A stretch of 64,000 nucleotides of DNA from an uncultured Frankiaceae bacterium (GTDB taxonomy: Bacteria > Actinomycetota > Actinomycetes > BP-191): NCBI GenBank assembly GCA_964651395.1, contig CAZYXZ010000005.1, forward strand, positions 5,007 through 69,006. The letters are read 5' to 3'. How positions within the stretch are numbered: position 1 is the first letter of the stretch; each line of letters begins with the position of its first letter. The position numbers and the translations under genes are program-made. The notes under the pieces were generated by a model. That model had not been told where the DNA came from and did not search any database. It saw nothing but the letters and a program-made list of their open reading frames with translations. Of this stretch, positions 34,653 through 63,763 are shown one piece after another.

Positions 34653-36256
34653 TGGCGATGCTGCCGAATGAACCGCCGGGTGGGCACACGCCTGTGCAGC
34701 CCGTGCTGGCCGCGCGCGACGTGCAGTCCAGAACTCTGCGTGGGTCGCTGTGGGGCCTGGTGGCTGCAGCTGCGGGCGTGCCGCTCGCGGTCGTCTCCAC
34801 AGTCGTTCTCACTCGAACGCTCAGCCCACGAGACTTCGGCCGCTATGCACTCCTCGCATTCCTGGTACCCACGGCAATCAGCTTGACGGACCTGGGAGCC
34901 ACCAATGCCTTCCTGCAGCGGGGGGCAGCAGCGCTCGGCGCTGGTGACAAGGAGACGCTTCGCCGTACCTGTGGCCAGGCCACGACCTGGAGCCTGGCTC
35001 GGTGGCCAGCACTGGTGGTCGCCTCCGCATTTCTCTTCAGGGATGTTCTCGCCGTGGTGTTGATCAGCGTGGTCGGCGTGGTGGCTGTCGTCTGCGCCGG
35101 CAAGGGGATCGCGCTGCTGAGTTCCATCCGGAACGCCGACCTGGCGCGGATCTACCTGCTGGCCAACACTCTGGGAACGGCGACCACGGTCTTGCTGGCT
35201 GTCCAGAGATCGAGTCCTGAACGCGTGTTCCTCGGGGGTATGGCTGTCCACCACCTGGCCATGATCTTGCAATTGAGGCTGGACACGGCGGGCTCTGTCC
35301 GGACACGTGATTGCCTTCGCCCGGCTCGCCTCACTGGACTTGCCCAGGACCTGAGATTCGGCTCAGGGATCTATGCCAGTCAGACGATGACCAACCTGGC
35401 TTTGGGCAGATCGGAGTTGGCGTTCTTCGGAGCAGGTCAGGTGCAGGAGCGTGCTGTGTATGCGGGCGCCTTCACCATGGCCAGCCGTCTGACCCTCCCC
35501 TTCGATGCGCTCTTCGGCGCGCTCGCTCCGGGGCTGAGCGCGATCACGGCGGACGACGACGCTTGGCGTGCAGGCCGGGACCGCAGCCTTCGGCTCAGCG
35601 GGGGTTTGTTTACGCTGCTGGCAGGTCCCTTGCTGTTTCTCGTCGTCGTCGGGGCCGACCTGCTGTTCCCGTCGTCGTATGCCGGCCTTGGTGAAGCAGC
35701 TGTGCTGCTCGCCGGCGCCTCGCTGCTGGTCAGCAGCTGCAGCGCCATTCCCAACATCCACTTCGCATCCAGGCGAGTGGCGCCGCTATTGGTGGCCGCT
35801 GGCGTCGGCCTGGCCGTCAACGTCGCAGTGTGTGTCCTGCTCATCCCCGCGTTCGGCCTGGCCGGCGCTGTGGCCGCGAACGTCATCGGCGCGCTCGTCT
35901 ATTCAGTGGCGCTGCTCATACCGATGGCCGTCGGCGCTGACGGAGCTGCCGCCAGAAGGTTCGCCGCGGTGGTCCTGACCTCGCTCGGTTCTGCAACCAC
36001 CATCGCAGTGGCTGCGACAGCCATCGATTCACGGCCCGCCCGCTGGGTCGGGGCGGCGCTGGGGGGACTTGCCGCAACACTCCTTGTAGCGAGGCTCGGC
36101 AAGTTGCTGCTTCCTTCAGATGTTGCGGCTGCAGCTGGCGCGCTGCCGGCGAGGCTGTCAGTTCCGCTCGTTCGGCTCCTCGCGGGCGCCACGATTCCAC
36201 TTTCGCCGCATGACCCGGTAGGTGCTGGCGAGGAGCACACGGATGAGTCGCCGTAA
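34652..36256 (+). CDS. Wzx-like oligosaccharide flippase (MOP superfamily polysaccharide biosynthesis protein)
   Basis: 534 aa, about 12-14 TM helices. The position in the locus fits a Wzx flippase. Confidence 0.7.
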   Translation: MAMLPNEPPGGHTPVQPVLAARDVQSRTLRGSLWGLVAAAAGVPLAVVSTVVLTRTLSPRDFGRYALLAFLVPTAISLTDLGATNAFLQRGAAALGAGDKETLRRTCGQATTWSLARWPALVVASAFLFRDVLAVVLISVVGVVAVVCAGKGIALLSSIRNADLARIYLLANTLGTATTVLLAVQRSSPERVFLGGMAVHHLAMILQLRLDTAGSVRTRDCLRPARLTGLAQDLRFGSGIYASQTMTNLALGRSELAFFGAGQVQERAVYAGAFTMASRLTLPFDALFGALAPGLSAITADDDAWRAGRDRSLRLSGGLFTLLAGPLLFLVVVGADLLFPSSYAGLGEAAVLLAGASLLVSSCSAIPNIHFASRRVAPLLVAAGVGLAVNVAVCVLLIPAFGLAGAVAANVIGALVYSVALLIPMAVGADGAAARRFAAVVLTSLGSATTIAVAATAIDSRPARWVGAALGGLAATLLVARLGKLLLPSDVAAAAGALPARLSVPLVRLLAGATIPLSPHDPVGAGEEHTDESP

Positions 36257-37024
36257 CTCGACAGGTCGCACGCGTACCCGCGCCGCCAGCCACACGCCGG
36301 CGCGGGGCATGAGAACGGTGGGTCTGGGCCAGCCCGCCCAGTGGTAGACGGGACTGTCGTCAGGCCGGTCAAGCATCATTAGCGCCGAGACTGGTCGGTC
36401 CCCTCGCGTGAGCCGATCGGCGCGGATACCACCCTCGTCGATGAGGAAGTTGAAGAAGGGTTGCTCACCGGTCGGTGCAAATCCGCCCTTGCGAGACACC
36501 CCATCAGCGAGGAGGGATCTGGCCATCTCCAGGGACAGTGCTCCCCGGTTTGCTGCCCACACTCCGGTGTTCCAGCCGCGCGCGCCGTACTGCTGCTGCA
36601 TCTCTACGGCGAGCGCGCCGGTGTAGACAGCTGCCACGTCCTCGTCGGCGAACAGAAGTTGTGAGTCAGATTGAGCCAGCTCAGTCAACAGCCAGGACAG
36701 TGGCTGCCGCACTAGTACGTCGCAGTCGAGGAAGACGAAGCTCTGATATGGGCCGTCGAAGGTGGCCAGCTTGCGGAACAGACGTTGCCCGACGACGTTG
36801 TCGGCAAAGAACGCGGCACCCAGCTCGTCCCATTGTTCCAGCGTCCCCATGTCCTCCCAGTGACCGATCCCGTAGGTCTCAGCGACCTGGCTGATCAACC
36901 TGTTCGGGCCTCCGAACGGAATCAGCAGGACTTCCGCGTGTGGCTCGTGTCTTCTCAGGGTCGACATCGCCACGGACGCCCATTCGACAACGGCGTCGTC
37001 GCCCAGCAGGTAGTAGCCGTTCAC
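36158..37024 (-). CDS. Hypothetical protein, possible GT-A-like nucleotide-sugar transferase (DXD-like FLDCDVLV)
   Basis: 288 aa with coding GC3. ATGA-coupled to the upstream methyltransferase. Family assignment is weak. Confidence 0.4.
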   Translation of the reverse strand: MNGYYLLGDDAVVEWASVAMSTLRRHEPHAEVLLIPFGGPNRLISQVAETYGIGHWEDMGTLEQWDELGAAFFADNVVGQRLFRKLATFDGPYQSFVFLDCDVLVRQPLSWLLTELAQSDSQLLFADEDVAAVYTGALAVEMQQQYGARGWNTGVWAANRGALSLEMARSLLADGVSRKGGFAPTGEQPFFNFLIDEGGIRADRLTRGDRPVSALMMLDRPDDSPVYHWAGWPRPTVLMPRAGVWLAARVRVRPVELRRLIRVLLASTYRVMRRKWNRGAREEPNERN

Positions 37025-37833
37025 AGATGTGGGGAACAGACGGCCCAGCGCATCCGCTCCGGGCGATATTCGCTCAGAGCATGCTGGGCGTCGGCCACCG
37101 AGAGGAGGTCGAGGCTTTCCCGTACTCGCTCCGGACTCAGATGTGCTTCGTCGATCACGGTAACTAGGTGGGTTGGGGCGAGACGGTCCAGCACGACTGT
37201 TGTGATGGTCCGATCGACGAAGTCATGCAGCTCGACCACGATGTCGGCACTTGCGAGATTGGGCATCTTGTCTGGGCGCAGGAGCGTCAGCTCTGCGCCC
37301 TCCACATCCATGATCAACAAGCATCCGGGTTCCAGCAGTGCATCCAACTCAGTGGCGTCAACTTCGCCGCGAACGGCAACACGCTGATCGACTTCATTCA
37401 GCTGAGCCAGCCGGCGACACAGCTCACGGGCCCTCCTGTCTACGTCGATGGCGATGACGATGGCCTCCGGCAGGCGCCTGGCAAGCCCCACGGCGTAGTA
37501 GCCCTCAGCGGAGCCCACGTCGATGACCGTTCTGGGTCCCCTTTCGATGAGGTGCTCCAAGGGCTCGTGCAGCGCGCTCTCGTATGAACCCAGGACCTTC
37601 GGCCAGTAGGCGCTGCCGTAGGCTTCATCGATATACCTCATGCCGGCGAACGGCCCGGTGACAACGACGGCGGGCTGTCCGCGGAGAACGGCGCGGGAGA
37701 TGCGGCTGTTGCGAGCCTGAGCATGTCGACGCAGTAGACGTCTCCGCGGGTTCTGGTCCCACATCGTGGCAAGCCGTTCCACGACTGAAGTAGGGAGAGA
37801 TCGCGTCCCCCAGTTCTTGACCGCGTGACTCAT
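37021..37833 (-). CDS. Class I SAM-dependent methyltransferase
   Basis: VIDVGSAEGYY motif I. Start taken at the internal Met (MSHAVKNW...). Confidence 0.6.
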   Translation of the reverse strand: MSHAVKNWGTRSLPTSVVERLATMWDQNPRRRLLRRHAQARNSRISRAVLRGQPAVVVTGPFAGMRYIDEAYGSAYWPKVLGSYESALHEPLEHLIERGPRTVIDVGSAEGYYAVGLARRLPEAIVIAIDVDRRARELCRRLAQLNEVDQRVAVRGEVDATELDALLEPGCLLIMDVEGAELTLLRPDKMPNLASADIVVELHDFVDRTITTVVLDRLAPTHLVTVIDEAHLSPERVRESLDLLSVADAQHALSEYRPERMRWAVCSPHL

Positions 37834-37915
37834 TCGGTGCCAGGCAGGCGACGTCGGTGACGGTATGTGATCTTCGGTCACGCGCAGTTCTCCTTTGCCG
37901 ACAGCGGTGTGCGGG

Positions 37916-38749
37916 CTACCGCGATCGTGCGGCACGGTTGCGCAGCCGGCGAAGAGCGTTGAACACCGGAGCAGGTGCGTGATCGCGGATCACCGCGCGC
38001 ACGTAGCGCCCTAGAGGTCCGGGAATCGGCGGCACGACGTCCTCGCTCCCCGGCCGCTTCTGGAACCGGGTCGGATGGGAAACCCGGAGGCGCCTCACGG
38101 GCGCCGTGTAGTAGTACATCGCGATCGATCGCCGGCACCTCCCGGCCGGCGGAGTGAGCGGCTCCGGGTGACCGTGGTACGACGTCGACGTCGTGGAGAA
38201 AACCACGAGGCGGTTCAGGATTGGGAGCACTCGAACCGTAGGCTCCGTCAGCTGTTGGTCCCAGAGCTCCAGATGACCACCGAACTCTTCGTCCCAATCC
38301 GGGTTGAGGTAGAGGATCGCGTTCAGGCGCCGATCAAGCGCGAGACGCACGTGCTTGTTGAAGTCGGCATGCACCTTGAGAACGCCGCCCTCGGCGATCT
38401 GATGCAACCCACCGCCCTCCAGATGTGGGTCAGGAACAAGTCCGGTAATGCCGGTGAGCAGTTCGAGAAACTCCACGAATACCTGACCGTTGAGCTCGTG
38501 AATGAACTGCACGAGCGGACCAGGGATGAGCGCCTCGTCTCGCAATGAGTACTTTCGCTCGACCACGCTGTCGAAGCGATACCAGTCCTGTGTCGGCTCG
38601 GGGAACACCTCGGCGAGCTGATGGATGAGATCGTCAGGGAGGAAGTTGTCGATCACGACATGCGGGAACGGCACAGCCTGCGCATATGTCGAAGCAAGGT
38701 CCGCCGCTACCGGCAGCAGGTCTTCCCGGTCGAAGCGGAAGGTCGACAT
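37916..38749 (-). CDS. 2OG-Fe(II) oxygenase family protein
   Basis: HADF (HxD) followed by YHGHPEP (distal His). Confidence 0.6.
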   Translation of the reverse strand: MSTFRFDREDLLPVAADLASTYAQAVPFPHVVIDNFLPDDLIHQLAEVFPEPTQDWYRFDSVVERKYSLRDEALIPGPLVQFIHELNGQVFVEFLELLTGITGLVPDPHLEGGGLHQIAEGGVLKVHADFNKHVRLALDRRLNAILYLNPDWDEEFGGHLELWDQQLTEPTVRVLPILNRLVVFSTTSTSYHGHPEPLTPPAGRCRRSIAMYYYTAPVRRLRVSHPTRFQKRPGSEDVVPPIPGPLGRYVRAVIRDHAPAPVFNALRRLRNRAARSR

Positions 38750-38760
38750 GTCGCGCGAGT

Positions 38761-39972
38761 CTAGTGTCGGCGGCCGATGCGCATCCCGGGAACGGCGACC
38801 GGACGCCGGCGGCTGCGTGTGTGTGCAGGCGGGCCGAACTCGGCGATGGCGGCCTGTCGTCCGGTGGGTGCCAGCGGATGGGACTTGGAGACGGCGTCCG
38901 CGTAGAGGTCTGTCTGATCGCGGGCAATCACTGACCAGTCGAACTGTGCTGCTCGGCGGATTCCCACAAGCCGTCGGGTGGCGGTTTGATCCTTGTCCTG
39001 CGCAGCGACCAGCACGGCGTCTGCCAGCGCTCCAACGTCACCATCCGAAACCAATGTGGCGAGTTCCCCGGCAACCTCCGGGATGGCACCTGTGGCGTAA
39101 CCCGCGACGATCGCGCCGCAGGCCTGGGCCTCAACGGCCACGCGACCGAACTGCTCCACCCAGCTACTGGTGACGTGACTCGGCATGAGCAGGACATGCA
39201 TCCGCTGGTACTGCGCGACCAGTTGCTCGTGATCGGCCCACGGTTGGTGTTCTATGGTCAGGCCGGGACACTCGTCCGCTGCGCTCAGGGCCGACTCAAG
39301 CATGTCGCCTGCGCCGACGAGCAAGAGGCGACATGGTCGTTCCGCCGCAACGAGTCGTGCCGTCGTCACGGCATCCGCGACACCTTTGTGTGCCTCGAGT
39401 CGACCCACCAAGCCGAGGACGAGTTCGTCGGCGGACATGTCCTGCCGGCCAGGCGCGAAAAGGCTCGTGTCGAGGCCGAGCGGTATGACGGAGAGCGCAC
39501 CGCTGAAGCCCTTGCCGCGTGCAACCGACGCGGCTTGAGCGCTGCACGCGTAGATGCCGGAGACGCGTTGGAGGGCCCGTCGCTCCCACTGTGCGAAGGG
39601 CGGCGGGTAGCGCTTGTCGAGGTTTTGCGCCGTGTAACACGTCACGGGAAGGCGGGAGCCAACGAGGCGCAGGACTTGGCGCAGCACGGCGCTGACCGGT
39701 TCAGCGTGCACGTCGATCAGATCAGGTCGCACGCTGTCGATGACCGCCGCTAGCGGGCCGCGCTCGTACCAGTGCGCGTTGACGCTTCCCCCGCGCCGGA
39801 CTACTACCTCATGAATAGGGAACGCGTCAGTTGAGAGCCGACGCTCGCTCCCGGCGTCGGGCCACACGTTAGGCACCACGAGATGGATGTCGTTTCCGGC
39901 GTCGACCAGCGCTGCGTCACGCCGTCGGTGCGCGCGGTCACGACCCGCGTGGTAGATCCGCAATACGCGCAC
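38761..39972 (-). CDS. Glycosyltransferase family 4
   Basis: GTG start at VRVLRIYH, two nucleotides after the upstream gene's stop. EQFGRVAVEAQACGAIVA C-terminal motif. Confidence 0.75.
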   Translation of the reverse strand: MRVLRIYHAGRDRAHRRRDAALVDAGNDIHLVVPNVWPDAGSERRLSTDAFPIHEVVVRRGGSVNAHWYERGPLAAVIDSVRPDLIDVHAEPVSAVLRQVLRLVGSRLPVTCYTAQNLDKRYPPPFAQWERRALQRVSGIYACSAQAASVARGKGFSGALSVIPLGLDTSLFAPGRQDMSADELVLGLVGRLEAHKGVADAVTTARLVAAERPCRLLLVGAGDMLESALSAADECPGLTIEHQPWADHEQLVAQYQRMHVLLMPSHVTSSWVEQFGRVAVEAQACGAIVAGYATGAIPEVAGELATLVSDGDVGALADAVLVAAQDKDQTATRRLVGIRRAAQFDWSVIARDQTDLYADAVSKSHPLAPTGRQAAIAEFGPPAHTRSRRRPVAVPGMRIGRRH

Positions 39973-39974
39973 GA

Positions 39975-41039
39975 CTACCGCGCTGCCCGGAGTTCGTGAG
40001 CGAACTCGCGCGCGCGCGCCGCCCAGGACATTTCCTCCAGGTCTGCGATGGAAGGTCTGTCGGATGTGCGGTGAGTGGCCTCGAGCACGGCAGCGACGAA
40101 GCTCTGTCTGTCCGCGATATGCACGCGCGGATGGCTGATCAGTTGGAAGCCACTGCTGGGTGTTGCTACGACGGGCAGGCCGCTTGCCAGGTACTCGTAG
40201 GACTTGATCGCATCGAGGCTCAGCGTGAAGTCTGTCACCAGATGAGGGCAGATAAGAACATCGAAACCTGCCATCCATGACGGTACCGACGTCCCTTCCA
40301 CCGGCCCGTGAAGGGTCGTGTTGGGGAGTGCCGCGAGCAGGCCGCGGCTGCGTGCTGACAGGGCATTCGGCCCCAGGAGCTGGACGGAACCAACGCCGGG
40401 TGTCAAGGCGACCGCCTTGATAAGGTCGATGTCGAGGCGGTCCTCATGGAGTGTTCCGACGTAGCCGATACGCGGGCGGGCACCGTCCATGTCTCGAGCC
40501 TCGACGTCCGTCCAGCCTGCGACGTCGACGCCGTTGTGAACTACTGCTGCGGTGACCGAGTACCGCTGATGCCACAGCCGCTTCAGCTCGTCACTGCAGA
40601 CCACTGTTCGAGCCCTGGCAGCGAGCCGACGCTCCGCGCGAATGATCCGGCGAATGATGCGCGGCGGAAGCGTTGCGTGGCGCCAGTCGTCGGTCACGTC
40701 GTAGACGGCGGGCACGTGGGCGCCAAGGAGCAGCGCACCGAGCACCGGCTCGTTGATCCAGAGAACGTCGCTGTCGAGCAGGCCCGCTCGGGCGAGCGAC
40801 CGGCTGGCTGCCCGAAAGCCACCCAGCCGTTTGGGCAGGTGAAGCTCCGGGCGGAAGACCCGCACGCCCGGCACCGGGGCAGACTCCCGGGCCCGTCGTC
40901 CCAGAACGGGTGGGTCGATGAAGACGATCTCGCGCACGAGTTCTTGACGCAGCAGCTCGCTGGCGAGCCATTGGTTGCGTCTCCAGATGTCGTCCCAGCG
41001 CTCGTGGCTGATCACGGTGACGCGATCGAGTGACTTCAC
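39975..41039 (-). CDS. Glycosyltransferase (GT-B, GT4-like)
   Basis: 354 aa. C-terminal SYEYLASGLPVVAT is GT-B-like. Confidence 0.6.
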   Translation of the reverse strand: MKSLDRVTVISHERWDDIWRRNQWLASELLRQELVREIVFIDPPVLGRRARESAPVPGVRVFRPELHLPKRLGGFRAASRSLARAGLLDSDVLWINEPVLGALLLGAHVPAVYDVTDDWRHATLPPRIIRRIIRAERRLAARARTVVCSDELKRLWHQRYSVTAAVVHNGVDVAGWTDVEARDMDGARPRIGYVGTLHEDRLDIDLIKAVALTPGVGSVQLLGPNALSARSRGLLAALPNTTLHGPVEGTSVPSWMAGFDVLICPHLVTDFTLSLDAIKSYEYLASGLPVVATPSSGFQLISHPRVHIADRQSFVAAVLEATHRTSDRPSIADLEEMSWAARAREFAHELRAAR

Positions 41040-53527: not shown

Positions 53528-54012
53528 CGGTCATCGATGTGACCAAGGACCCGGCGAGCCGATCGCTGACCATCACCTCGGAGTTCGACGCGACCCCAGA
53601 ACGGGTCTGGCGGCTGTGGGCGGAGCCGGCCCAGCTCAACCGCTGGTGGGGTCCTCCCGGGTGGCCGGCGACGTTCGTCGACCACGACCTGAGCCCGGGC
53701 GGCGACGTCCGCTACTACATGACCGGACCGGACGGCGAGAAGGCCGGCGGTTGGTGGCGGGTCAACGTCGTGGAGCCGCCCCACCGGCTGGAGGTGACCG
53801 ACGGCTTCGCCGACGAGTCCGGCAACCGCAACGATGCGATGCCCACCGTCGAGATGGTCGTGACGATCGCCGAGTCCGGCGGTCGTACGCGGATGACGAT
53901 CGCCTCGACGTACTCCACGCTCGAGGACATGGAGAAGGTCATCGCCATGGGCATGGAAGAGGGAATAACGCTGGCCCTCGGGCAGATCGACGCGCTGCTG
54001 TCGGAGGGCTAG
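53524..54012 (+). CDS. SRPBCC (AHSA1/Aha1-like) domain protein
   Basis: ATGA coupling with the ArsR gene. PERVWRLWAEPAQLNRWWGPPGW motif typical of the Aha1-like SRPBCC family. Confidence 0.7.
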   Translation: MTVIDVTKDPASRSLTITSEFDATPERVWRLWAEPAQLNRWWGPPGWPATFVDHDLSPGGDVRYYMTGPDGEKAGGWWRVNVVEPPHRLEVTDGFADESGNRNDAMPTVEMVVTIAESGGRTRMTIASTYSTLEDMEKVIAMGMEEGITLALGQIDALLSEG

Positions 54013-54039
54013 CTCCCCGTTCGGTCATCACGCCAGAGA

Positions 54040-54078
54040 ACCCCGGTCTTCAGGCTCTTGAAGACCGGGGTTCTGCTG
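54040..54078. terminator. Perfect 16-bp stem / 6-nt loop hairpin (AGAACCCCGGTCTTCA-ggctct-TGAAGACCGGGGTTCT)
   Basis: Read directly from the sequence. It lies just downstream of the SRPBCC gene and at the boundary of the integrative element. No U-tract follows. Confidence 0.45.
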
Positions 54079-54092
54079 TGTGGGGCGATGAG

Positions 54093-54139
54093 CGCGCTCG
54101 GAGGGACTCGAACCCCCAACCTTCTGATCCGTAGGTCCG
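54093..54139 (-). other. 3'-terminal tRNA fragment (T-arm GGGGG-TTCGAGT-CCCTC plus acceptor 3' strand CGAGCGC-G); putative att-site remnant
   Basis: The minus-strand reading gives a canonical T-stem-loop and a 7-nt acceptor 3' strand plus discriminator. No matching 5' acceptor strand or D-arm exists upstream, so this is not a complete tRNA. Confidence 0.4.
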
Positions 54140-54272
54140 CACGCCATGTGTCACCACGTATCAGAACGATCCCTGACCTGCGGTTTCACCGCACGAAGTG
54201 TCTCACGGTGCTTCACGACGTGTCACCGCGTTGCAGTAAGACTGCAGCACATCGCAGCGAAGGGCGATCGCT

Positions 54273-54851
54273 CTACGCGCCGCTCGCTCGTCCGAAGGCA
54301 GCTGCGCGGCGCCGCGCGATGAGCCGGGCGCCCGTGGCGTCCATCCGCCAGCGAGCGAGGTCGATGCTCACGCCGAACTGCAGGGCAACCTCCTCATTAG
54401 TTGCCCTTCGCCGAGCCAGTTGTTTGGCGGCCTCGAACGGGACGAGGAGCTCGCCCGCGATTTCAGCGGCTTCAGCTTCCTGCGCCTGGTCTGCGAGCCG
54501 GCAGCCTCGCTCGTTAACGAGGCTTGTCCCAAACTTGTGCTCTCCGAAGACGTGCGCCAGCTCGTGCCCCATTGTCGACCTGCGCCGCACCAAGGGATGT
54601 GAATCGTTCTCGACGATCACTGCTCCAGTTCCGAGCGGCACAAGGGCACCCGAAAAGCAATCCGGTCGGACGTTCATGAAGTAGTTGCGAACGTCGCTAG
54701 TGACCGGCAACAGGCTCAGCGAGAACACTTCGATCCCGTACAGCTCGGCGAGTTTCCACGGGTCCAGCGCATCCATCGGATCGAGGTCGATCTCCGTGCG
54801 TAGCTCACCGGCAAGCCGCTTGCACGCGGCCTTGTTGACGGTGCGCTTCAT
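54273..54851 (-). CDS. ImmA/IrrE-family metallo-endopeptidase
   Basis: HELAHV (HExxH). Sits immediately next to an XRE HTH gene in the same orientation. Confidence 0.75.
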   Translation of the reverse strand: MKRTVNKAACKRLAGELRTEIDLDPMDALDPWKLAELYGIEVFSLSLLPVTSDVRNYFMNVRPDCFSGALVPLGTGAVIVENDSHPLVRRRSTMGHELAHVFGEHKFGTSLVNERGCRLADQAQEAEAAEIAGELLVPFEAAKQLARRRATNEEVALQFGVSIDLARWRMDATGARLIARRRAAAFGRASGA

Positions 54852-54853
54852 CG

Positions 54854-55231
54854 TCAGACAGATCCTTTCCGCGCTGCCCGTGCGTGCTTTACCGTGGCCC
54901 GGATCACTTCCTCAAGGTAGGCGACATCGCGCTTGTCGAGGTCTTGGCGCGCCCGCAGCAGCGGGGCGAGCTGGGTCACGAGGTCAGGTTCAGGCTGGGC
55001 CGCCCGATCGGACTCGATGTCGATCATGAAGCTCTCGGCCGGCATGTTCAGCCAGCGAACCAGAGTCGCGAAACCGTCGGCGTCCGGACGCAAGTCATTG
55101 CCTAGACGCGACAGCAGCGACGGGCTCACGCCGATGTCCTTTGCAAGTTGTCGCCACGACAAGCCACGTGTCGTCCGTTCCGCATCGAGCGCGGCGTATA
55201 GGCCCTGCACGTCGATCTTCGTGGTTGCCAT
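54854..55231 (-). CDS. XRE-family helix-turn-helix transcriptional regulator
   Basis: LSWRQLAKDIGVSPSLLSRLGN HTH. Start at the internal ATG (55231); the preceding part of the ORF is Cys/Arg-rich. Confidence 0.7.
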   Translation of the reverse strand: MATTKIDVQGLYAALDAERTTRGLSWRQLAKDIGVSPSLLSRLGNDLRPDADGFATLVRWLNMPAESFMIDIESDRAAQPEPDLVTQLAPLLRARQDLDKRDVAYLEEVIRATVKHARAARKGSV

Positions 55232-55313
55232 GAGTCCCCTCGGCGGCCGACCGAGAGTGTCGCACTTCCGGGCCACTGCTTGAAAGTCGACACGCACTGT
55301 TCTACAGTCGGCG

Positions 55314-55337
55314 CAATGCGTCACAACCGACGCATTG
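55314..55337. promoter_or_regulatory. 9-bp inverted repeat CAATGCGTC-n6-GACGCATTG between the XRE gene and the Ubl-E1 cassette
   Basis: Read directly from the sequence. Lies in the divergent intergenic region 55232..55362. Confidence 0.4.
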
Positions 55338-55362
55338 TCGATCGTTGAGCAGAGGAGTGGAA

Positions 55363-55623
55363 GTGACGACCGCAGCCCAGAGCGATCACAAGACGAAGGT
55401 AGTCACGATCATCGTCAACACCAGGCCTCACGAGTGGCTGGAGAAGGACATCACCTTCGAGCAGGCAGTCGAGCTCGCGTTTCCGGGCCAGCCGTACGAC
55501 CCCGCCGGAACGACGGTCGAATACAGCCGGGGCCACGGTCCGGACAAGTCGCTGCGGCCCGGAGAGCGTGTGCATGTAAAGGACGGCATGGTCTTCGATG
55601 TCGAAGCCGCCAACCGGTCCTGA
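55363..55623 (+). CDS. Multiubiquitin-domain (beta-grasp, Ubl) protein
   Basis: AGGAG RBS 5 nt before the GTG. KVVTIIVNTRPHEW...ITFEQAVELAF...VHVKDGMVFDV matches the recalled consensus of the prokaryotic Multiubiquitin family (I-VNG--YEV---ITG-QIL-LAG...L--G--F-TVP). Confidence 0.55.
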   Translation: MTTAAQSDHKTKVVTIIVNTRPHEWLEKDITFEQAVELAFPGQPYDPAGTTVEYSRGHGPDKSLRPGERVHVKDGMVFDVEAANRS

Positions 55624-56758
55624 AGACTCGATCTCCAGGCTGTACTCAGACGGGTACGACGTTCTCCTCGAGAACGGTCACCTGAAGGTCCGCGTCCCCT
55701 ACCTGTCGCCGAGCGGACCCCGTGGCGACGGGCGCCTGGTGCTCCCCGTCAACGACACCGATGGTGTCCTGAATGATGCCCTCAGCGACCACACCATCTG
55801 GTTCTCCGGCGAGGAGCCGCGGGACGAACGTGGCGCACCGCTTGGTGGCGCGAACCAGCGCGACCTCGGCAATGGCGACACTGCCAACTTCATGCTGTCC
55901 TTCAAGCCGCCAAGCGGCAGTTACGCCAGCCTGTACGAGAAGGTCCGCGGGTACGCACGCATCCTGAGTACCCCGGCGGTACAACTGGATCCCGTTCTCT
56001 CGGCCACACCAGGCGCGGCTTTTCAAGTGGTGGAAGACGGATTGCCGTTCGTGTACCGCGACACAAACACCACGCGAGCCGGCCTCACGGAGCTAAGCAA
56101 TCTCTTTCGCGGCCATACCGTTGCGATCGTCGGGGTCGGAGGTACCGGGAGTTACATTCTTGATCAGGTTGCGAAGACGTGGGTCGATCGAATCATCCTC
56201 ATCGACGGCGACGTCTTCGAAAACCACAACGCGTTCCGAGCGCCGGGTGCTGCCTCACACGAAGCGCTTCAGAAGCGCCAGAGCAAGGCCGAGTACTTCG
56301 CGGCCGAGTACTCCCGTATGCACACCGGTATCACTCCGCACGCGGAACATCTGACGGCCGATAACCTGGACCTGTTGGCGGACGCAACGTTCGTCTTCCT
56401 CGCGGCGGCCGATGCGAAGGCGCGCCCTGACATCATGGTGTGGCTCCGGGAGCGCAGCATCCCATTCATCGACGTGGGAATGGGTGTGAGCATCGGCGAC
56501 AGTGGGCTCACCGGGCTGCTGAAGGTCACCTCGTACCCGATTGGCGCGGACGCGCTGCCACTGCAGAGTGCGGACACCGCGCCTGGTGAGGATGACTACG
56601 GCAGCAACATCCAAGTTGCCGACCTGAATGCCCTCAACGCGGTGCTGGCGGTCATCCAGTGGAAGCGTCAGCTCGGCTACTTCGCTGCCCATTCGTTGAC
56701 GACCGAAACCGTTTACAAGCTCTACCTCAACGAGCTGCGCAACGGCGACACCGAATGA
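55598..56758 (+). CDS. ThiF/MoeB-family E1-like adenylyltransferase with about 170-aa N-terminal extension; contains no cysteine
   Basis: IVGVGGTGSYILDQVAKTWVDRIILIDGDVFENHNAFR is the ThiF/E1 nucleotide-binding motif. The 386-aa translation has zero Cys residues. Confidence 0.75.
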   Translation: MSKPPTGPEDSISRLYSDGYDVLLENGHLKVRVPYLSPSGPRGDGRLVLPVNDTDGVLNDALSDHTIWFSGEEPRDERGAPLGGANQRDLGNGDTANFMLSFKPPSGSYASLYEKVRGYARILSTPAVQLDPVLSATPGAAFQVVEDGLPFVYRDTNTTRAGLTELSNLFRGHTVAIVGVGGTGSYILDQVAKTWVDRIILIDGDVFENHNAFRAPGAASHEALQKRQSKAEYFAAEYSRMHTGITPHAEHLTADNLDLLADATFVFLAAADAKARPDIMVWLRERSIPFIDVGMGVSIGDSGLTGLLKVTSYPIGADALPLQSADTAPGEDDYGSNIQVADLNALNAVLAVIQWKRQLGYFAAHSLTTETVYKLYLNELRNGDTE

Positions 56759-57153
56759 GTCGCGCGGAGCGCTTTGTAGCGCAGATTGTAGACGCTTTCC
56801 CGTCGCCACTGCAGCCGGGCGTGTTGTACGTCTCCACCGCGTACTCGACCGCGGCACACATCTGTCCTTGCGGGTGCGGAAGTGAGGTGGTCACCAAGCT
56901 CTCGCCAGCCCGCTGGAAGGTGATCTTCGACGGCGAGGTTTCGCTAAGCCCGTCCGTCGCAAGTACCGGACTCCCCTGCAACTCGCACTACTTCATCACC
57001 CGTGGTGCAGTGGATTGGCGTCGGAAGCTCGACTCGAGTGAGGCTGCGCTAACCCAAGCCGTCGATCGTGACGCACTTCATCAGCATCGGGTCCCATCGA
57101 AGAGCAACTGGTTCGCCAGACTGCGGCAAGGGATCGGACGCTTGTTCACGTAG
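56755..57153 (+). CDS. Small CPCGCG-motif protein (DUF6527-like; candidate non-canonical E2-like partner)
   Basis: ATGA overlap with the E1-like gene. 132 aa with AHICPCGCGSEVVT plus a fourth Cys (GLPCNSH). Confidence 0.5.
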   Translation: MSRAERFVAQIVDAFPSPLQPGVLYVSTAYSTAAHICPCGCGSEVVTKLSPARWKVIFDGEVSLSPSVASTGLPCNSHYFITRGAVDWRRKLDSSEAALTQAVDRDALHQHRVPSKSNWFARLRQGIGRLFT

Positions 57154-57168
57154 CTCGCGCTCGAGCAC

Positions 57169-58611
57169 CTAGTCACGGCCGGTCAATCGGTTGGACGTCG
57201 CCGGCTCAACATCTTGCTGTTGCTCGCCGTGACCTGGCGGCGACTCGGCGTTCTGTGTCTCTTCGAGCGCCCTGGCGTACGCGTCCATGGCCGCAGCGGA
57301 GGCGGCGGCTTGATCAAGGTTGGGGTCGAGGTAGCCGCGTGTGGTCCGGTCGTCTGAGTGGCCGAGGTACTCGCGGGCGAACTCGATCGGCAAGCCGGAC
57401 CGCACGATGATCGTCGCGCCAGTGTGACGAAGTCGATGCGGCGTGGCGCGAGCGACGCCGACGCTCGTAGCCACTCGTTGCCAAGCAGCACGCAAGTTGG
57501 CGTCGTCGAGTTGGGTTCCGATGTCGGTCGTGAAGACCAGGTCCTGGTCGGCCCACCGCAGCGGAGATCCGACAGCCGCCATGTGCTCGTTGAATGCCCG
57601 GATCTGCTCTTGCTGACGGGCGTGATGCTCAATCAGTTCGCGATGAAGGACCTCGGGCAGCTTCAACAGGCGAAGCTTGTGGCCCTTCGAGTCGCTCACA
57701 ACGCGCTCGGTCCGCAACGGTGAGCCGTCGCGTCGCTTCTGCCGCCGCACGTTGGCCCCGAAGTAGACCTCGCCGTTCGCCAGGTTGATGCGCGACCATC
57801 GCAGCTCGAGGATCTCGCCGATGCGAGCGGCGAGCATGAAGAGGGCGAGCCAGAGCGAACGGCGCGCGTCCGCGGCCATCGCCGGCCACAGCAATTTCAT
57901 CTCTTCCTTGGTGTGGCCGGTCACACGGGTGGCTGGCGCTCGCTTCCCGCCGGGGAGTTTGCAGTCCATCGCCGGGTTGTAGGGGATGCGGTTGTCGCGC
58001 TTGGCGTCCTGCAGCGATCGCCGGAGCGCCGCAAGCATCCCCTTCAGCGAGGAATATGAGCGCGTCTTCGTCGACGGGTTCTCGATCCGCCGCCGGGCGT
58101 TCGCCTGCCGCTTGGCGATCTCGTTCTTCGACCGATGACCCTTGCCTTCGCCGGTGCGTCGCGGTCCTCCCCGAACGACGACGTCGCGTGACTTCTTCGC
58201 GAGCCACGCCTGGATCAGTGGCGTCGTGAGCTCCTCGAGTTTCCACCCACCGAGTTCCGGCACGACGTGGTTCTCCCAGTCGGCCTCGTAGCCGTCGCGA
58301 GTGGAGGACTCGATGGCGCCGATCGTCACCTCGTCGTCCAGGATGGCGAACCAGCGAACGCCCCACTCGGTAATCGTCATCGACTCACTCGTGGTGGCGC
58401 CCTGCATGCGCTGCGCAATCCGCAGTTCGATGAGCTTGTCCGTGACTTCCTGCTTGGTCTTGCCGTACACCGTTGCGCGCCGCCGTACCCCATCTGGGCC
58501 CCGTACGCCGGTCAGCTGGCCGATCCACCTTCCGTCCTGGCGCTTGTGGATGGAGCCTTCGCCGTAGCCGCGCCTCTTCTTCGGCTTCTTCTCGTCCGCC
58601 TGCTCGGCCAT
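57169..58611 (-). CDS. int: Tyrosine-type site-specific integrase
   Basis: C-terminal catalytic region (RLRHTGATIIVRSG...LGHSDDRTTRGY has the R..HxxR..Y pattern). Start at Met106 of the ORF-track ORF (MAEQADEKKPKKRRGYGEGSI). Confidence 0.85.
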   Translation of the reverse strand: MAEQADEKKPKKRRGYGEGSIHKRQDGRWIGQLTGVRGPDGVRRRATVYGKTKQEVTDKLIELRIAQRMQGATTSESMTITEWGVRWFAILDDEVTIGAIESSTRDGYEADWENHVVPELGGWKLEELTTPLIQAWLAKKSRDVVVRGGPRRTGEGKGHRSKNEIAKRQANARRRIENPSTKTRSYSSLKGMLAALRRSLQDAKRDNRIPYNPAMDCKLPGGKRAPATRVTGHTKEEMKLLWPAMAADARRSLWLALFMLAARIGEILELRWSRINLANGEVYFGANVRRQKRRDGSPLRTERVVSDSKGHKLRLLKLPEVLHRELIEHHARQQEQIRAFNEHMAAVGSPLRWADQDLVFTTDIGTQLDDANLRAAWQRVATSVGVARATPHRLRHTGATIIVRSGLPIEFAREYLGHSDDRTTRGYLDPNLDQAAASAAAMDAYARALEETQNAESPPGHGEQQQDVEPATSNRLTGRD

Positions 58612-58805
58612 CAGCTGGCCTTCCGCATCGAGACGAGTTGATCGAGCGAACTGCGGGGGATACGCAGCTTGCCGCGGATCTGGATTCCCGGGAGCTCGCC
58701 CGCGTCCACCATGCGGTAGATCGACGAGCGCGAGATCGCGAGCAGAGCGGCCGCCTGGGCAGTGGTGCAGAGGAGCGATTCGTGCGGTTCGTTGAGCGTG
58801 TTCAT
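58611..58805 (-). CDS. xis: Excisionase-like HTH DNA-binding protein
   Basis: 64 aa. AQAAALLAISRSSIYRMVDAGELPGIQIRGKLRI is MerR-like/Xis HTH. Its stop overlaps the integrase start by 1 nt. Confidence 0.6.
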   Translation of the reverse strand: MNTLNEPHESLLCTTAQAAALLAISRSSIYRMVDAGELPGIQIRGKLRIPRSSLDQLVSMRKAS

Positions 58806-58897
58806 CGAGAGTCCTTCGTTCGAGGATCGCGTTTGCCGCGACGTCCAACCCCGGGCTAACCGCCGGCTTCACCGCGTGGGTGGGCCGGAGTTGGCGC

Positions 58898-59206
58898 TCA
58901 CGGCGGGGTATCTGTTGGCGACCCATCTCGGCCGTGGAGGAGCACTTCCAGTGCCTCGTAGAGGCCGGTCACGAGCCGCGTCGGATCGCGCTCGTGCGAT
59001 GCGTTGATGACGAGTGCGAGAAGCTCGGCAAGCGCGCCCGCGAGCCGTTCCGTCGCGGCCTCAGCCGCCGCGATGTTGTCCAGCACGTAGGAGTCGAGCC
59101 CCACGAGCCATGCCTCGGCGATCTCTGTGCGAAGCGCGTGGACGCCGTCCACGAGCCCGAGGAACGAGGGCAGCGCACCCTCGGCCGGCAGGACGAGGTC
59201 GGTCAT
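58898..59206 (-). CDS. Hypothetical protein (element-borne)
   Basis: Strong GGAGGTGAG RBS before the ATG at 59206. 102 aa, helical. Confidence 0.4.
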   Translation of the reverse strand: MTDLVLPAEGALPSFLGLVDGVHALRTEIAEAWLVGLDSYVLDNIAAAEAATERLAGALAELLALVINASHERDPTRLVTGLYEALEVLLHGRDGSPTDTPP

Positions 59207-59282
59207 GGAACTCACCTCCGACTCGACCGTGCCGCACTCAAGCCCCACGGCGACTCCCCGTGCCCGCGCATAAGCGACGGTT

Positions 59283-59300
59283 TTGGACACGCGTGTCCAA
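59283..59300. repeat. Perfect 18-bp palindrome TTGGACACGCGTGTCCAA flanked by GTTTTGG direct repeats
   Basis: Read directly from the sequence. Lies in the divergent intergenic region 59207..59415. Confidence 0.5.
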
Positions 59301-59415
59301 GGCGTTTTGGTCGCGGCAGAGCACGGACCCGTCACTCCGGGACCGCGGGCCTGCGCGTTGCCGACATTCCGAACCGAGAGCCGGCGTCGACGACGCCCAG
59401 AGCAAGGAGAGCCAC

Positions 59416-60576
59416 GTGGACGCGCGACGTGCACCCCGACCGAGCTCAGCCGGGATCCGCCAGCTGACGACCGTTGTCGACGTCGAACCGCCGCTAGTGG
59501 GCGTGCACGACGGCACTGCCGGGTGGTGGCCGCTTCGAGTGCTAGCGGAGTCCCGCTTGGTGACAGCTGGGCTGCGAGACGCGCTCGGCCAGGCCATGGA
59601 CCAGCGAGTGGAGGGCGGGCGCGCCGCAGTCGCCTGGACGATCGTCCAACTGGAACGTCTCGGCTGGGTCCGCCCGCTCGACCTGCCACCGCAGAAGCCC
59701 GTGGAGCGTTTCGCACTGCGTCAGGACGCCGAGCGCGTCGCTCGGTCGATGGGCGGGCTGCGCGGGGGGAAAGCAGCCGTGATTGCGGCGACTCTGATCG
59801 ACAAGCCGAAGGGCCTGACCGCAGACGACTTGCGCATCGCGGTCAACGGCGGCGACCCACAGAAGGTGCCCGCGTCCGAAGACCGGGCGTACTACTCGGC
59901 GCTCGCGGTCCTTCAGGCCAAGGGCGCGCTCACCAAGACGAGCTCCGATCGCGTGCCCAAGGTCCTGTGGCTCACACCCTTCGGTGCGGGGTGCTTGTCG
60001 TTGATGGCACGGAGCGGGCGGTGGGGTCTGCCGCACGGCGCGCGGGCCGTCACGATCAGCGCACACCGACGGCATGCTGTCCTCATCGCTGACGCACTAG
60101 CTGCGCTGCTGAAAGTATTTCCCGAGGCCGTCGACACCGTCGTCTGCGACCGAGTCCGCCGGTCCAAGCCCGTCGTCGACATGCCTAACGCGCCGACCAG
60201 CGGCCGTATGCGGCCCGATGTGTACGCGCCGGTGACCTTGGCGGACGGGTCGCGATGCCTGCTCGTCATCGAGTGGGAAACGAAGGGACGGGAGAGCGTC
60301 GAACGGCACCTGATCAACAGCACGAACCTGCTGCATTCCGAGGTACTCCGTGAAGACTCCCCCTACTACCGCATGGTCACGGTCGTCGCGACTGCCCGGA
60401 ACGGTGGGACGCGAGACGGACTTGTGAGCGACACCCTCGCGAGTATGGACCGGGCCGGGTACGGGCAGCTGACGCGATCGCTCGATGTCCGGGTGGCTAC
60501 CCGCGCTGCGCTGACGCGGGTGCTGCAGGACATCAAGGCTGAGGGGAGCTATTGGCGTGAAAGGAGGCTGTCCTGA
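59416..60576 (+). CDS. Hypothetical protein, possibly replication/relaxation-related (element-borne)
   Basis: AAGGAGA RBS 5 nt before the GTG. 386 aa. No firm family recognised. Confidence 0.4.
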   Translation: MDARRAPRPSSAGIRQLTTVVDVEPPLVGVHDGTAGWWPLRVLAESRLVTAGLRDALGQAMDQRVEGGRAAVAWTIVQLERLGWVRPLDLPPQKPVERFALRQDAERVARSMGGLRGGKAAVIAATLIDKPKGLTADDLRIAVNGGDPQKVPASEDRAYYSALAVLQAKGALTKTSSDRVPKVLWLTPFGAGCLSLMARSGRWGLPHGARAVTISAHRRHAVLIADALAALLKVFPEAVDTVVCDRVRRSKPVVDMPNAPTSGRMRPDVYAPVTLADGSRCLLVIEWETKGRESVERHLINSTNLLHSEVLREDSPYYRMVTVVATARNGGTRDGLVSDTLASMDRAGYGQLTRSLDVRVATRAALTRVLQDIKAEGSYWRERRLS

Positions 60577-61696: not shown

Positions 61697-61909
61697 GTGG
61701 AAGGCGCACTGCAGAAGACGCTGGGGCGGAACCTGCGCCGCTGGCGGGAGCAGCGCGGTTTATCCCAAGAGGCACTCGCCGACCGCCTCGGGCTCCACCG
61801 CACGTACATCGGCGGAATCGAGCGCGGCGAGCGCAACCTGACGCTGCGCTCTGTGGAGCGCCTCGCAGCGGATCTCAAAGTCCAACCCCTGGATCTTCTG
61901 CAGGAATAG
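61697..61909 (+). CDS. XRE-family (Cro/C1-type) HTH regulator
   Basis: 70 aa. [38 protein letters not shown]. Confidence 0.65.
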
Positions 61910-62653
61910 GGCGCTCTGTTTCCGGCTGGCAACGGAGAACCGCCCGCGTCGCGAGGCCGAGCAAGCCCAGGTCGATCACGGCAAGAACCCGCCAGAGGCC
62001 GTGCTGGGCAGGGTTCGCGGCGAGCCGGGTCACGGCACGCGCGACGACGGCGATGCCGACGAAACAGAACGCCTTTCGGGCACGTGGACGGCGACAGCCC
62101 CAGTGGGCGCGGATCAAGTGCATCGGTACCTCCTGACGACGGCGGCGGGAGCCGGCCGGTCGACGATGCGCTCTTAGCTGGGGCAGTCGACTCCCCTGCG
62201 ATCAGCGATCGAGTGCGCGCTTGCGCTCGTTCAGGGCTCGCCGCGCGGCGGCCGTCGCATGGCCGACGTGCCAGCCACCGCAGAGCCGACACGCGTATGG
62301 CACGAGCCAGCTCGTCTTCGAACTCATCATCCGTTTGGCCGTTGCCATCGCAGCGGAGCGGTCGCGATGGCGAACCTTGCCGGTGCAGCTGCGCCGCCGC
62401 ACCCCGCGCTTGCTGCTCATGCCGCCATGCCTGCCACTCTTGAAGAGAAGCAGTCAGATGACGCTGCTCGACTCCCCGCTGAGCACCAACCCGACGCGCC
62501 AGCGGTCGCCCTCAACGCGTGCCGGTGATCTTCGGGAGCCCGTGCCCTTGCGGCGTTTGAAGTGGCACAACGAAGACGACCACGCGGCCCCACCCACCGT
62601 GGTTGTACCGCGGTTAGCCATCGAACAGAGCCGCGGCGCCCGCCGTGGCCAGA

Positions 62654-62974
62654 GAGATGGAGTGCCCAATGGGTGTCCAGGTTCCGCAGTGGCAGAAGGC
62701 AGGCCGCGCCATCGTGCGCGAAGCGGAGGAACGTGGGGAGTCGCTCGTGACGACGACGCTGCGCTTGCTCCCGAAGATCCCGAAGCGGCGCGAGTTCATG
62801 TTCTGCGACCTGCAGGAGTGGTTCGGCCTCCGGGAGAAGAGCGCTTCGGAGGAGTGGGGTGCCCTCGCCCGCTATCTCCAGTGGCTCGGCGTCACCGTCA
62901 AGACCGGCTGGGCGGAGACGTCCCCGAAGAAGTCCCGCGGCAAGGGCTACGCCCGGACCTGGCTGGTCGCGTAG
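62654..62974 (+). CDS. Hypothetical protein
   Basis: AGAGAG before the ATG. No recognisable domain. Confidence 0.3.
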   Translation, partial: EMECPMGVQVPQWQKAGRAIVREAEERGESLVTTTLRLLPKIPKRREFMFCDLQEWFGLREKSASEEWGALARYLQWLGVTVKTGWAETSPKKSRGKGYARTWLVA

Positions 62975-63253
62975 GGCTGAAGCGACCGATCTCCGGTGGG
63001 CGGCGCCAAAAGATCTTCCAGGTCTCGCCGCTCATCGGGGTCGGTGGATGGCCTTACCTGAGTAGGAAGCGCATCCGCCCGGTGCCGAGAGGACCCCGGG
63101 AGCAGTACGTTCGCCCGCACCACGACACAACTTCACACGACCCGAGAGTCCTGGGGAAAGGGCCTGGCCAACAGCGCCTCGCCGAAGAGAACCCGGGGTC
63201 TACCACCTCGCATGGCGGCAGCGCCATGGGGCTCTCCAGAACAAGGGAGACCC

Positions 63254-63763
63254 ATGGACGAAGCCGCTCTTTCATTAGCCGAGGACTTTGACCTCGTCCG
63301 CTTCAAGGCGGTGGTTGCCTCGAAGTGTCCGTCTTCTCTGTCCGAGCGGGACAAGGAGGACGTGGCCGCCGACATGTTGGCCGACGCGGTGAGAACTTCT
63401 CGCGCGACCGGCATTCCTGTCGGGGTCGCGGCCATCCAGAACCTGACGCGGCCGCGTTACTACGAGCGGCCAGCCGCGAAGGCCAAGGTCGCGCCGGGCC
63501 CGCTGCCCGGCGGAGAAGCCGGGGATGAGACAACACCCGACATCGAAGACCCGCGCGATCTGGTCGCGGACCTCGAGGTGCGAGACCTGGTTGAGCGGCT
63601 GCCGCTCCAGCAGCGCCGTGCCTACCTGCTCGTCGTGGAGTACGCGATGACGCACGCGGAGGCTGCAGTGGCCATGTCGGTGACGCCTTCTACGGTGCGA
63701 GAGCACCTCGGCAAGGCATGTGCCGCGCTGCGGCAAGCCTGGGAGGCCGCCCAACAGAGTTAA
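63254..63763 (+). CDS. Sigma-70 family region-4-containing protein (ECF-like sigma factor)
   Basis: AAGGGAGA RBS. C-terminal LPLQQRRAYLLVVEYAMTHAEAAVAMSVTPSTVREHLGKACAALRQ resembles region 4. Confidence 0.5.
   Translation: MDEAALSLAEDFDLVRFKAVVASKCPSSLSERDKEDVAADMLADAVRTSRATGIPVGVAAIQNLTRPRYYERPAAKAKVAPGPLPGGEAGDETTPDIEDPRDLVADLEVRDLVERLPLQQRRAYLLVVEYAMTHAEAAVAMSVTPSTVREHLGKACAALRQAWEAAQQS

Follow-up and report, generated by a model that had tools for sequence, protein, structure and literature searches.

The window, by which we mean the whole stretch of 64,000 nucleotides analyzed here (positions 5,007 to 69,006 of contig CAZYXZ010000005.1, assembly GCA_964651395.1, from an uncultured Frankiaceae bacterium), carries on its plus strand, at positions 55232-57153, a cassette that consists of an intergenic promoter region and three genes and that begins at the first base past the likely ATG of a divergent XRE-family regulator gene. 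The first gene, bubA (55363..55623, plus strand), stands alone directly upstream of the E1 gene and encodes an 86-amino-acid (aa) ubiquitin-like protein (Ubl) that is a single beta-grasp domain ending in ...DVEAANRS. The second, bubBD (55598..56758, plus strand), encodes a 386-aa E2-E1 fusion, and the third, bubE (56755..57153, plus strand), encodes a 132-aa DUF6527 protein. The bubA stop codon (55621-55623) lies past the bubBD ATG at 55598, which is an overlap of 26 nucleotides (nt), and the bubBD TGA (56756-56758) overlaps the bubE ATG (56755-56757) in an ATGA coupling. The bubA open reading frame (ORF) spans 55345..55623 from a TTG, and its likely start is the GTG at 55363, which is 5 nt past GAGGAG (55352-55357); the length from this GTG is 86 aa, as it is for the NCBI-derived protein P0121. 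The original prediction, a reading of the sequence without database searches, described a Multiubiquitin-type Ubl of 86 aa, a 26-nt overlap with the gene for a 386-aa ThiF protein, and an ATGA-coupled gene for a 132-aa protein, and the cassette is present exactly as it was first described. The database comparison that it called for also supports it: BubA matches Multi_ubiq (PF14452; E value 2.3e-16, 60 bits against a cut-off of 24.5), BubBD matches DUF6791 at aa 12-156 (3e-25) and ThiF at aa 162-295 (6e-13), and BubE matches DUF6527 (PF20137; 1.3e-21), a family that a newer Pfam release labels "BubE." All of these Pfam matches are strong and well above the cut-offs.

Bub operons, formerly called "6E" or "DUF6527," were defined by Ye, Gong, Chambers, and Corbett (bioRxiv 10.1101/2024.11.21.623953), and Type II Bub was defined in that work as a Ubl, an E2-E1 fusion, and a DUF6527 protein, without a JAB peptidase. 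Because the architecture of the cassette exactly matches this published definition, we conclude that, as judged by its genes and domains, it is a complete canonical Type II Bub operon (formerly 6E.2/DUF6527) and that neither an E2 nor a peptidase is missing from it. The expectation of a Bub-type ubiquitin-like conjugation module is thereby upheld both by Pfam family and by Type II architecture. A Pfam scan of all five proteins of the larger module described below, of the integrase, and of the excisionase detected no JAB/JAMM domain, an absence that is typical of Type II but not absolute. All of the published Type II Bub catalytic residues are present, which are S101/K103/H65, R214/D292, and Y334 in BubBD and C37/C39/C41/C75 and S67/H78 in BubE. 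A relative from Nocardioides halotolerans (L021), in which BubBD is 51% identical to that of the window, is entered as Type II Bub in Table S1 of Ye et al.

BubBD contains no cysteine in 386 aa, as had been predicted for the E1-like protein. Its E2 domain (approximately aa 1-150; 55598-56047) carries H65, S101, and K103, while its E1 adenylation domain (approximately aa 160-386) carries GVGGTG (GxGGxG) at 179-184, R214, and D292, with Y334 past the crossover loop. A model of the full protein, built on 124 diverse homologues with identity down to 33%, has a pLDDT of 90 and a pTM of 0.86, and its sole disordered internal stretch is the crossover loop at 325-331, which Y334 adjoins. In a Foldseek comparison of this model with the PDB, the top 8 matches are Citrobacter BubCD chains (best E value, 3.8e-14), followed by MccB, PaaA, UBA5, ThiF, and MoeB. 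Citrobacter BubCD is also the best match in the PDB by sequence (4e-6), and R214 aligns with the arginine of its NLNR motif; the published adenylation-site arginine is R219 in E. coli and R227 in Citrobacter. The N-terminal extension has an E2 fold that is closest to BubB. Across the 124 homologues, H65, R214, and Y334 are invariant (124/124 each), and D292 is conserved in 122, S101 in 120, and K103 in 109. S101, R214, and Y334 of the window lie 5 to 8 residues from the E2 serine S106, the adenylation-site R219, and the crossover-loop Y342 of E. coli, mutation of which abolished conjugation in the study by Ye et al. According to the same study, Bub E1 and E2 act via tyrosine and serine oxyesters rather than cysteine thioesters, and the E. 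coli homologue makes covalent BubA conjugates in vitro. A separate observation is that 59 of the 124 BubBD proteins have a cysteine at the position of R75 of the window, directly past the near-invariant P74, and that a cysteine replaces the catalytic Ser101 in 4 of them. Based on these cysteines, the E2 step may involve a thioester in some BubBD members, possibly through reversion.

The four cysteines of BubE are C37, C39, C41, and C75, with CPCGC at residues 37-41, so that the CPCGCG motif and the total of four cysteines noted in the small protein are confirmed on counting. Published work shows that DUF6527 is a serine protease that combines a C4 zinc finger with a Ser/His dyad and that its expression strips BubA conjugates (10.1101/2024.11.21.623953). 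The window protein has the C4 zinc site C37/C39/C41/C75 and the dyad Ser67/His78, and these six residues are 99 to 100% conserved in 80 sequences. By these residues, the DUF6527 protein of the window is a predicted BubE, a zinc-finger Ser/His peptidase, and not the E2-like protein for which the original prediction took it. Its tail, ...NWFARLRQGIGRLFT, looks amphipathic by eye.

These findings bear directly on the idea that had first made the cassette seem of high interest, which was that it lacks both E2 and peptidase and is a reduced Bub/Bil variant, with a Ubl, an E1 bearing an extension to which no role is assigned, a small noncanonical E2 (DUF6527), no E2 fold, and no peptidase. The Pfam names DUF6791 and DUF6527 do not by themselves show a function, and the 2023 PADLOC models, which include none for Bub and none for a Ubl or DUF6527, recognize only the E1 part, through Cap2 models; to this extent, a reduced system could be argued for. 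In contrast, the BubBD extension has an E2 fold, the DUF6527 family is a demonstrated Ser/His peptidase that removes conjugates when expressed, the BubE of the window retains the full dyad and zinc site, and the architecture is the standard one for the family. The E2 fold, the peptidase residues, and this standard architecture contradict a reduced variant, which we regard as exceedingly improbable. Thus, the absence of a JAB peptidase stands, while the supposed absence of any peptidase or E2 does not: the peptidase is BubE, and the E2 is fused N-terminally to the E1. Description of the cassette as reduced or divergent is likewise withdrawn, since its architecture is the published definition of Type II. 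PHROGs gave no match for BubA or BubE.

The C-terminus of BubA was also examined in relatives. Essentially all other ubiquitin-like conjugation systems use Gly or Gly-Gly, whereas the Type II Bub Ubl ends in a near-invariant [Arg/Lys]-Ser. All 120 close BubA homologues end in ...RS, nearly all of them in ...NRS, and the terminal residue is Ser, preceded by Arg or Lys, in 70 of 72 related loci drawn from Actinomycetota, Proteobacteria, Bacteroidota, Verrucomicrobiota, Chloroflexota, Planctomycetota, and Firmicutes (one ends in Ala). Given 70 Ser termini in 72 loci, we read the non-Gly end (-NRS) as the family norm and as no sign of decay. The lack of a C-terminal Gly-Gly (...EAANRS) had therefore been observed correctly, but it does not indicate reduction or divergence. 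The crystallized E. coli Type II Ubl (9cd2) stops two residues past ...TQTD, which would be compatible with the proteobacterial ending ...TDKS; a search of plasmid records for a near-identical sequence from which to read the final two residues found none. The main text and supplement of the 2024 preprint (10.1101/2024.11.21.623953; preprint version only) contain no mention, by term, of the C-terminal Ser.

The bubA/bubBD overlap is exactly 26 nt in all 37 related loci in which the BubBD N-terminus could be placed (from Actinomycetota, Alphaproteobacteria, Planctomycetota, Verrucomicrobiota, and Chloroflexota). In the window, the bubBD ATG lies inside the Asp-Val codons (GAT GTC) of the BubA tail ...FDVEAANRS, and the last eight BubA codons are dual coding (55598-55623). 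It is conceivable, if somewhat doubtful, that the [Arg/Lys]-Ser end and the exact 26-nt overlap are mechanistic requirements of the cysteine-free pathway rather than accidents. If this is true, the E1 or BubE might, for example, need the terminal Ser to recognize BubA, or the chemistry of oxyester transfer might depend on that Ser.

A Ubl that ends in Ser and not Gly-Gly, the position of MccB, PaaA, ThiF, and MoeB as the next structural neighbors past BubCD, and weak NCBIfam matches to ThiF and TcdA are all features that would fit an adenylating enzyme that does not conjugate, acting either in an MccB/PaaA-like C-terminal modification of a small protein or with a ThiS/MoaD-type sulfur carrier. 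In all of these systems, a Rossmann-type fold adenylates the C-terminus of a small protein or peptide. However, those pathways have no place for a fused E2 fold with an invariant His and a near-invariant Ser. Cysteine is absent from the enzyme, and the Pfam scan reported no rhodanese domain, so there is no hint of sulfur transfer. Unlike ThiS/MoaD-ThiF/MoeB, the window system has no Gly-Gly, sulfur chemistry, or biosynthetic neighbors, and it does have an E2 domain and a peptidase, the dedicated gene for which always follows the E1 gene. The neighbors of the module in the window are regulators, an integrase, and unrelated genes. The original prediction had named constant company with sulfur-carrier genes as a finding that would speak against it; the annotated neighborhoods contain no thiamine or molybdopterin genes, and no genes for microcin export. 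Finally, covalent conjugation of BubA has been obtained in vitro with the E. coli homologue. We find nonconjugating adenylation scarcely credible and retain the assignment of the cassette to Type II Bub.

Two genes on the minus strand are divergent from bubA. The capH-like gene (54854..55231, minus strand) encodes an XRE-family helix-turn-helix (HTH) repressor of 125 aa from the ATG at 55231 (Pfam HTH_31/HTH_3), and it ends 2 nt before the start of the capP-like gene (54273..54851, minus strand), which encodes a 192-aa ImmA/IrrE (M78) zinc metallopeptidase with HELAH at 96-100 (Pfam Peptidase_M78, 3.3e-14; PADLOC capP model, 3.7e-12). CapH orthologues of 124 to 125 aa are annotated in Rhodococcus and other genomes. 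Of 80 related loci, 33 have a capP and capH pair in divergent orientation upstream of bubA, and 25 of those 33 have no integrase within 8 kilobases (kb). The five-gene module also occurs without an adjoining integrase on a Rhodococcus plasmid and in other genomes, and it is found in GCA_900161855.1 (L082) and in two Mycobacterium genomes (L083 and L084). In the survey by Ye et al., CapH and CapP adjoin 31% of 544 Bub operons. Because the pair is divergent in 33 of 80 loci, mostly without an integrase, because the five-gene module recurs elsewhere, and because of the published 31%, the ImmA/XRE pair is best read as a CapP/CapH-type regulator of the operon. The original prediction was correct that the pair and an integrase are present on mobile DNA, but the pair is more than a marker of mobility.

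ImmA/ImmR-type pairs often control mobile elements. It could be argued that the ImmA/XRE pair is the repressor and antirepressor of the element itself, as are ImmR and ImmA of ICEBs1, and that it controls int/xis and excision rather than bub, since an integrase and an excisionase are 2 to 3.5 kb away in the same low-GC segment and the match to the capH model is weak. In this case, the position of the pair, divergent next to bubA and not to int/xis, would be difficult to explain, as would the 25 of 33 pair-bearing loci without an integrase within 8 kb, the plasmid-borne five-gene module without an adjoining integrase, the two Mycobacterium genomes in which the module has different left flanks, and the tie of CapH and CapP to 31% of Bub operons. 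We therefore think it improbable that the pair serves the element and not bub. Regulation of bub and control of the island by the pair are not mutually exclusive. The two Mycobacterium loci (L083/L084) share the module and a ParA-like gene, and their sequences diverge left of ~6.9 kb, where L083 has a second M78 peptidase gene and a Sipho_Gp37 phage-tail-type gene; the differing left flanks are consistent with a module moving between contexts.

A predicted bub promoter is located at 55280..55308 on the plus strand (TTGAAA, 17-nt spacer, TACAGT). It is the only sigma-70-like site in 54000-59200, and both of its hexamers are kept in the closest relatives. Directly past the -10 hexamer is a perfect 9-bp inverted repeat (55314..55337, no strand assigned), CAATGCGTC-N6-GACGCATTG, which is the best intergenic palindrome and a candidate CapH operator, so that CapH may bind here. 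Relatives L002 and L008 have palindromes of other sequence at the same position, and 17 of 26 related capH-bubA intergenic regions have a palindrome with a P value of ≤0.05, located after the -10 hexamer or over the -35 hexamer. In a Streptomyces/Nonomuraea-type group of loci (L017, L018, L023, L026, L029, L033, L054, and L056), there is a strong palindrome, CAGTGCTCGAAA..TTCGAGCACTG, ~51 to 56 nt before bubA. The window retains just the left half of this palindrome, CCACTGCTTGAAAGT, which includes the -35 hexamer, and it has the different palindrome past the -10; in L046, the Streptomyces/Nonomuraea-type motif is a 27-nt direct repeat.

The module is on integrated foreign DNA, as had been predicted, and we base this on the GC content of 0.62 compared with 0.69, a tRNA fragment, and the int/xis genes. 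The GC content goes from ~0.69 to ~0.62 over 54.0-57.2 kb, and the drop is just right of a 52-nt tRNA-like 3' fragment (54093..54144, minus strand) that extends from the anticodon loop to the acceptor end, is a probable attachment (att) remnant at the left edge of the insert, and adjoins the terminator hairpin of the preceding AHSA1-family gene. This fragment reaches 17.4 of the 29 bits that are the gathering score for tRNA in Rfam; a T-arm and the 3' strand of the acceptor can be made out in it, and by our reading it resembles the 3' part of a tRNA-Arg(ACG). It folds no better than shuffled sequence (z, -0.04). A UUCUGA ~30 nt upstream of it could pair with UCAGAA of the anticodon stem (54093-54170, minus strand). 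On the other side of the cassette, a tyrosine integrase gene (57169..58611, minus strand; ~480 aa; Pfam Phage_integrase, 2.2e-18; PHROG 1 integrase, 3.4e-42) converges with bubE, the two stop codons being 15 nt apart. It is preceded by a gene for a 64-aa excisionase-type HTH_17 protein (58611..58805, minus strand; Pfam HTH_17, 2.5e-14; PHROG 66 excisionase). Since the xis stop overlaps the int start (58609-58613), the two genes look translationally coupled.

In view of the fragmentary tRNA at the border, and because the window contains neither a second att copy nor an intact tRNA, we also considered whether the cassette is a decayed, nonfunctional remnant carried passively on an old island. 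This would not be expected to leave five ORFs intact, with every catalytic and metal-binding residue kept, or to leave the gene overlaps, the ribosome-binding site, and the promoter in place, and we give it almost no weight. We conclude that the locus is very probably a five-gene module, in which capP-capH is divergent from bubA-bubBD-bubE, on inserted low-GC DNA that has a tRNA 3' fragment on the left and is followed by xis-int.

Several points weigh against this conclusion. Ye et al. (10.1101/2024.11.21.623953) were unable to find phage protection by any Bub operon, and this had not changed by June 2026. The proteins with which they demonstrated the oxyester route, from Citrobacter (Type I) and E. 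coli (Type II), are ~40% or less identical to those of the window, and S101 is inferred to be the E2 catalytic position from conservation and numbering. Because a profile of the E2 domain found no BubB sequence match in the PDB, the E2 assignment rests on the fold and the conserved residues. The match of the CapH-like protein to PADLOC capH is weak (E value, 0.0073, with no domain passing alone), and neither it nor the CapP-like protein has a sequence match to solved CapH/CapP in the PDB. The candidate operator is modestly above chance (4 of 100 shuffles equal it; P = 0.04), and several of the closest relatives (L001 and L003-L005) have no strong palindrome. ARAGORN found no intact tRNA anywhere in the window, and a relaxed, intron-permitting run gave only spurious calls. 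Neither a second att copy of the tRNA fragment, nor a 5' tRNA half, nor a right border of the island could be located in the window.

No att repeats were detected in three relatives in which an integrase adjoins bubE, and L003 has only a partial tRNA-like repeat, located between two integrases. Exact-sequence look-ups of BubBD, BubA, and the neighboring AHSA1 protein, made in order to extend the contig or to find an unoccupied insertion site, returned no record. To the right of xis (58.9-64 kb), the ORFs have no defense or phage family matches in Pfam, PADLOC, or PHROGs except a generic HTH, and a defense-island context could not be demonstrated within the window. Two apparently genuine ORFs just right of xis, 59014-60576 (plus strand) and 58898-59206 (minus strand), have no match in Pfam, PADLOC, or PHROGs and may be further island cargo; in the latter, which encodes 102 aa, the ATG at 59206 is preceded by a good ribosome-binding site. 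A 70-aa HTH_3 protein is encoded at 61697-61909 (plus strand) and matches the PADLOC "Control_protein" model for restriction-modification C proteins (4e-21) and capH (4e-11), with no recognizable nuclease or methylase beside it. The long ORF at 62221-63291 looks like a noncoding frame. In another part of the window (~20400-40300) is a polysaccharide biosynthesis cluster with several GT4 and GT2 glycosyltransferases, a Wzy-type polymerase/ligase, a ParA/AAA_31-type chain-length regulator kinase, a flippase, and a methyltransferase; its GC content, 0.64 to 0.68, is slightly below that of the left part of the window.

Essentially all 80 related loci, which range from Actinomycetota to Bacteroidota and include one archaeon, have their genes in the order bubA-bubBD-bubE. 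BubBD homologues are present in at least 593 species genomes and in 126 plasmid records, and in none of 50,697 phage records; with an E value of ≤1e-30, they fall into 384 clusters at 50% identity. In L082 (GCA_900161855.1), a gene at 8347-9993 (minus strand) converges on bubE, with a 58-aa ORF between them, and encodes a 548-aa protein with dCMP_cyt_deam and MafB19-like deaminase domains, which may be a toxin-type or defense-type neighbor.

The closest described system is the Type II Bub operon, as exemplified by BubA-BubBD-BubE of E. coli ZDHYS365, which has the identical three genes in the same order. Both encode an E2-E1 fusion of ~390 aa without a catalytic Cys, and both have the invariant crossover-loop Tyr, the Ser, Lys, and His of the E2, and the adenylation Arg. 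In both, the DUF6527 protein has a C4 zinc site together with a Ser/His dyad, and a JAB peptidase is absent. Further features in common with Type II operons are regulators of the CapH and CapP type, which are frequent there, and a location on mobile DNA beside a tRNA. The two differ in that the E. coli Ubl (9cd2) has three beta-grasp domains in 222 aa, whereas that of the window has one domain in 86 aa; in addition, BubBD of the window is only ~40% identical to proteobacterial Type II members, and its host is a high-GC actinobacterium.

Type I Bub (6E.1), represented by BubAB-BubCD-BubE of Citrobacter sp. RHBSTW-00271 (PDB 9ea4, 9ea8, 9eae, and 9eav), provides the closest solved E1 adenylation domain as well as the BubB that the E2 domain of the window most resembles, and the BubE family and the cysteine-free logic are common to both types. 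However, Type I consists of Ubl-E2 and JAB-E1 fusions and has a C-terminal Gly that is freed by cleavage. The window cassette instead has a free-standing Ubl with a terminal Ser, joins its E2 to the E1, and lacks a JAB; it is not Type I. The Bil (bacterial ISG15-like) Type I/II systems likewise encode a Ubl, E1, E2, and peptidase together and are associated with defense. Their E2 is a separate protein, their peptidase is a JAB, and their E1 has tandem adenylation domains together with a catalytic Cys domain, in contrast to the single adenylation domain of the window, with no Cys and no JAB, so that "Bil-like," a term used in the original prediction, does not apply. Type II CBASS also differs: there, the E2-E1 fusion Cap2 works through cysteines, its conjugation substrate is a CD-NTase instead of a Ubl, and its partner Cap3 is a JAB peptidase. 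In the window, the cassette consists of bubA, bubBD, and bubE alone, with no CD-NTase or effector gene. The regulator pair resembles CapH and CapP of CBASS and other immune operons, since in both there is an HTH gene and then an HExxH M78 gene, divergent from the operon, with a palindrome at the promoter. The window capP matches the PADLOC capP, while the likeness of capH is limited to the weak similarity given above.

A possible sequence of events can be put together by homology for all of its steps, the genes, domains, folds, residues, overlaps, and promoter elements that it draws on being observed as present and conserved. In an unstressed cell, CapH would sit on the palindrome past the bub -10 hexamer and keep the operon off. 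DNA damage or phage infection would activate the M78 metallopeptidase CapP (HELAH), which would cleave CapH and derepress the operon, and bubA, bubBD, and bubE would be produced together through the 26-nt overlap and the ATGA coupling. The E1 domain of a dimeric BubBD would bind ATP (GxGGxG at 179-184, R214, and D292) and adenylate the C-terminal Ser carboxylate of BubA. BubA would then form an oxyester on Tyr334, beside the flexible crossover loop, and would pass to Ser101 of the fused E2 with the help of His65 and Lys103 and on to a lysine of a target protein, with no cysteine step. The BubE peptidase (Ser67/His78), with its seemingly amphipathic tail, would take BubA off targets and so restrain the pathway. 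A link of the cassette to stress or defense is plausible, and the benefit to the cell could be antiphage defense, a general DNA-damage response, or a gain for the mobile element.

The copy described here adds an uncharacterized member to a family that is already known; its regulators are the standard ones, and nothing in its architecture is new. For annotation, it indicates that "ThiF family adenylyltransferase," "multiubiquitin domain-containing protein," and "DUF6527," when found together, are a Type II Bub operon, here with its regulator pair. The Bub family itself is intriguing because it carries out ubiquitin-like conjugation without any cysteine, and attempts to test its function in E. 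coli have not succeeded to date (10.1101/2024.11.21.623953). The value of this copy is modest and lies in its being a compact actinobacterial test case, with a single-domain 86-aa Ubl, a self-regulated five-gene module, and adjoining int/xis genes, with which Bub function could be examined in a host other than E. coli.

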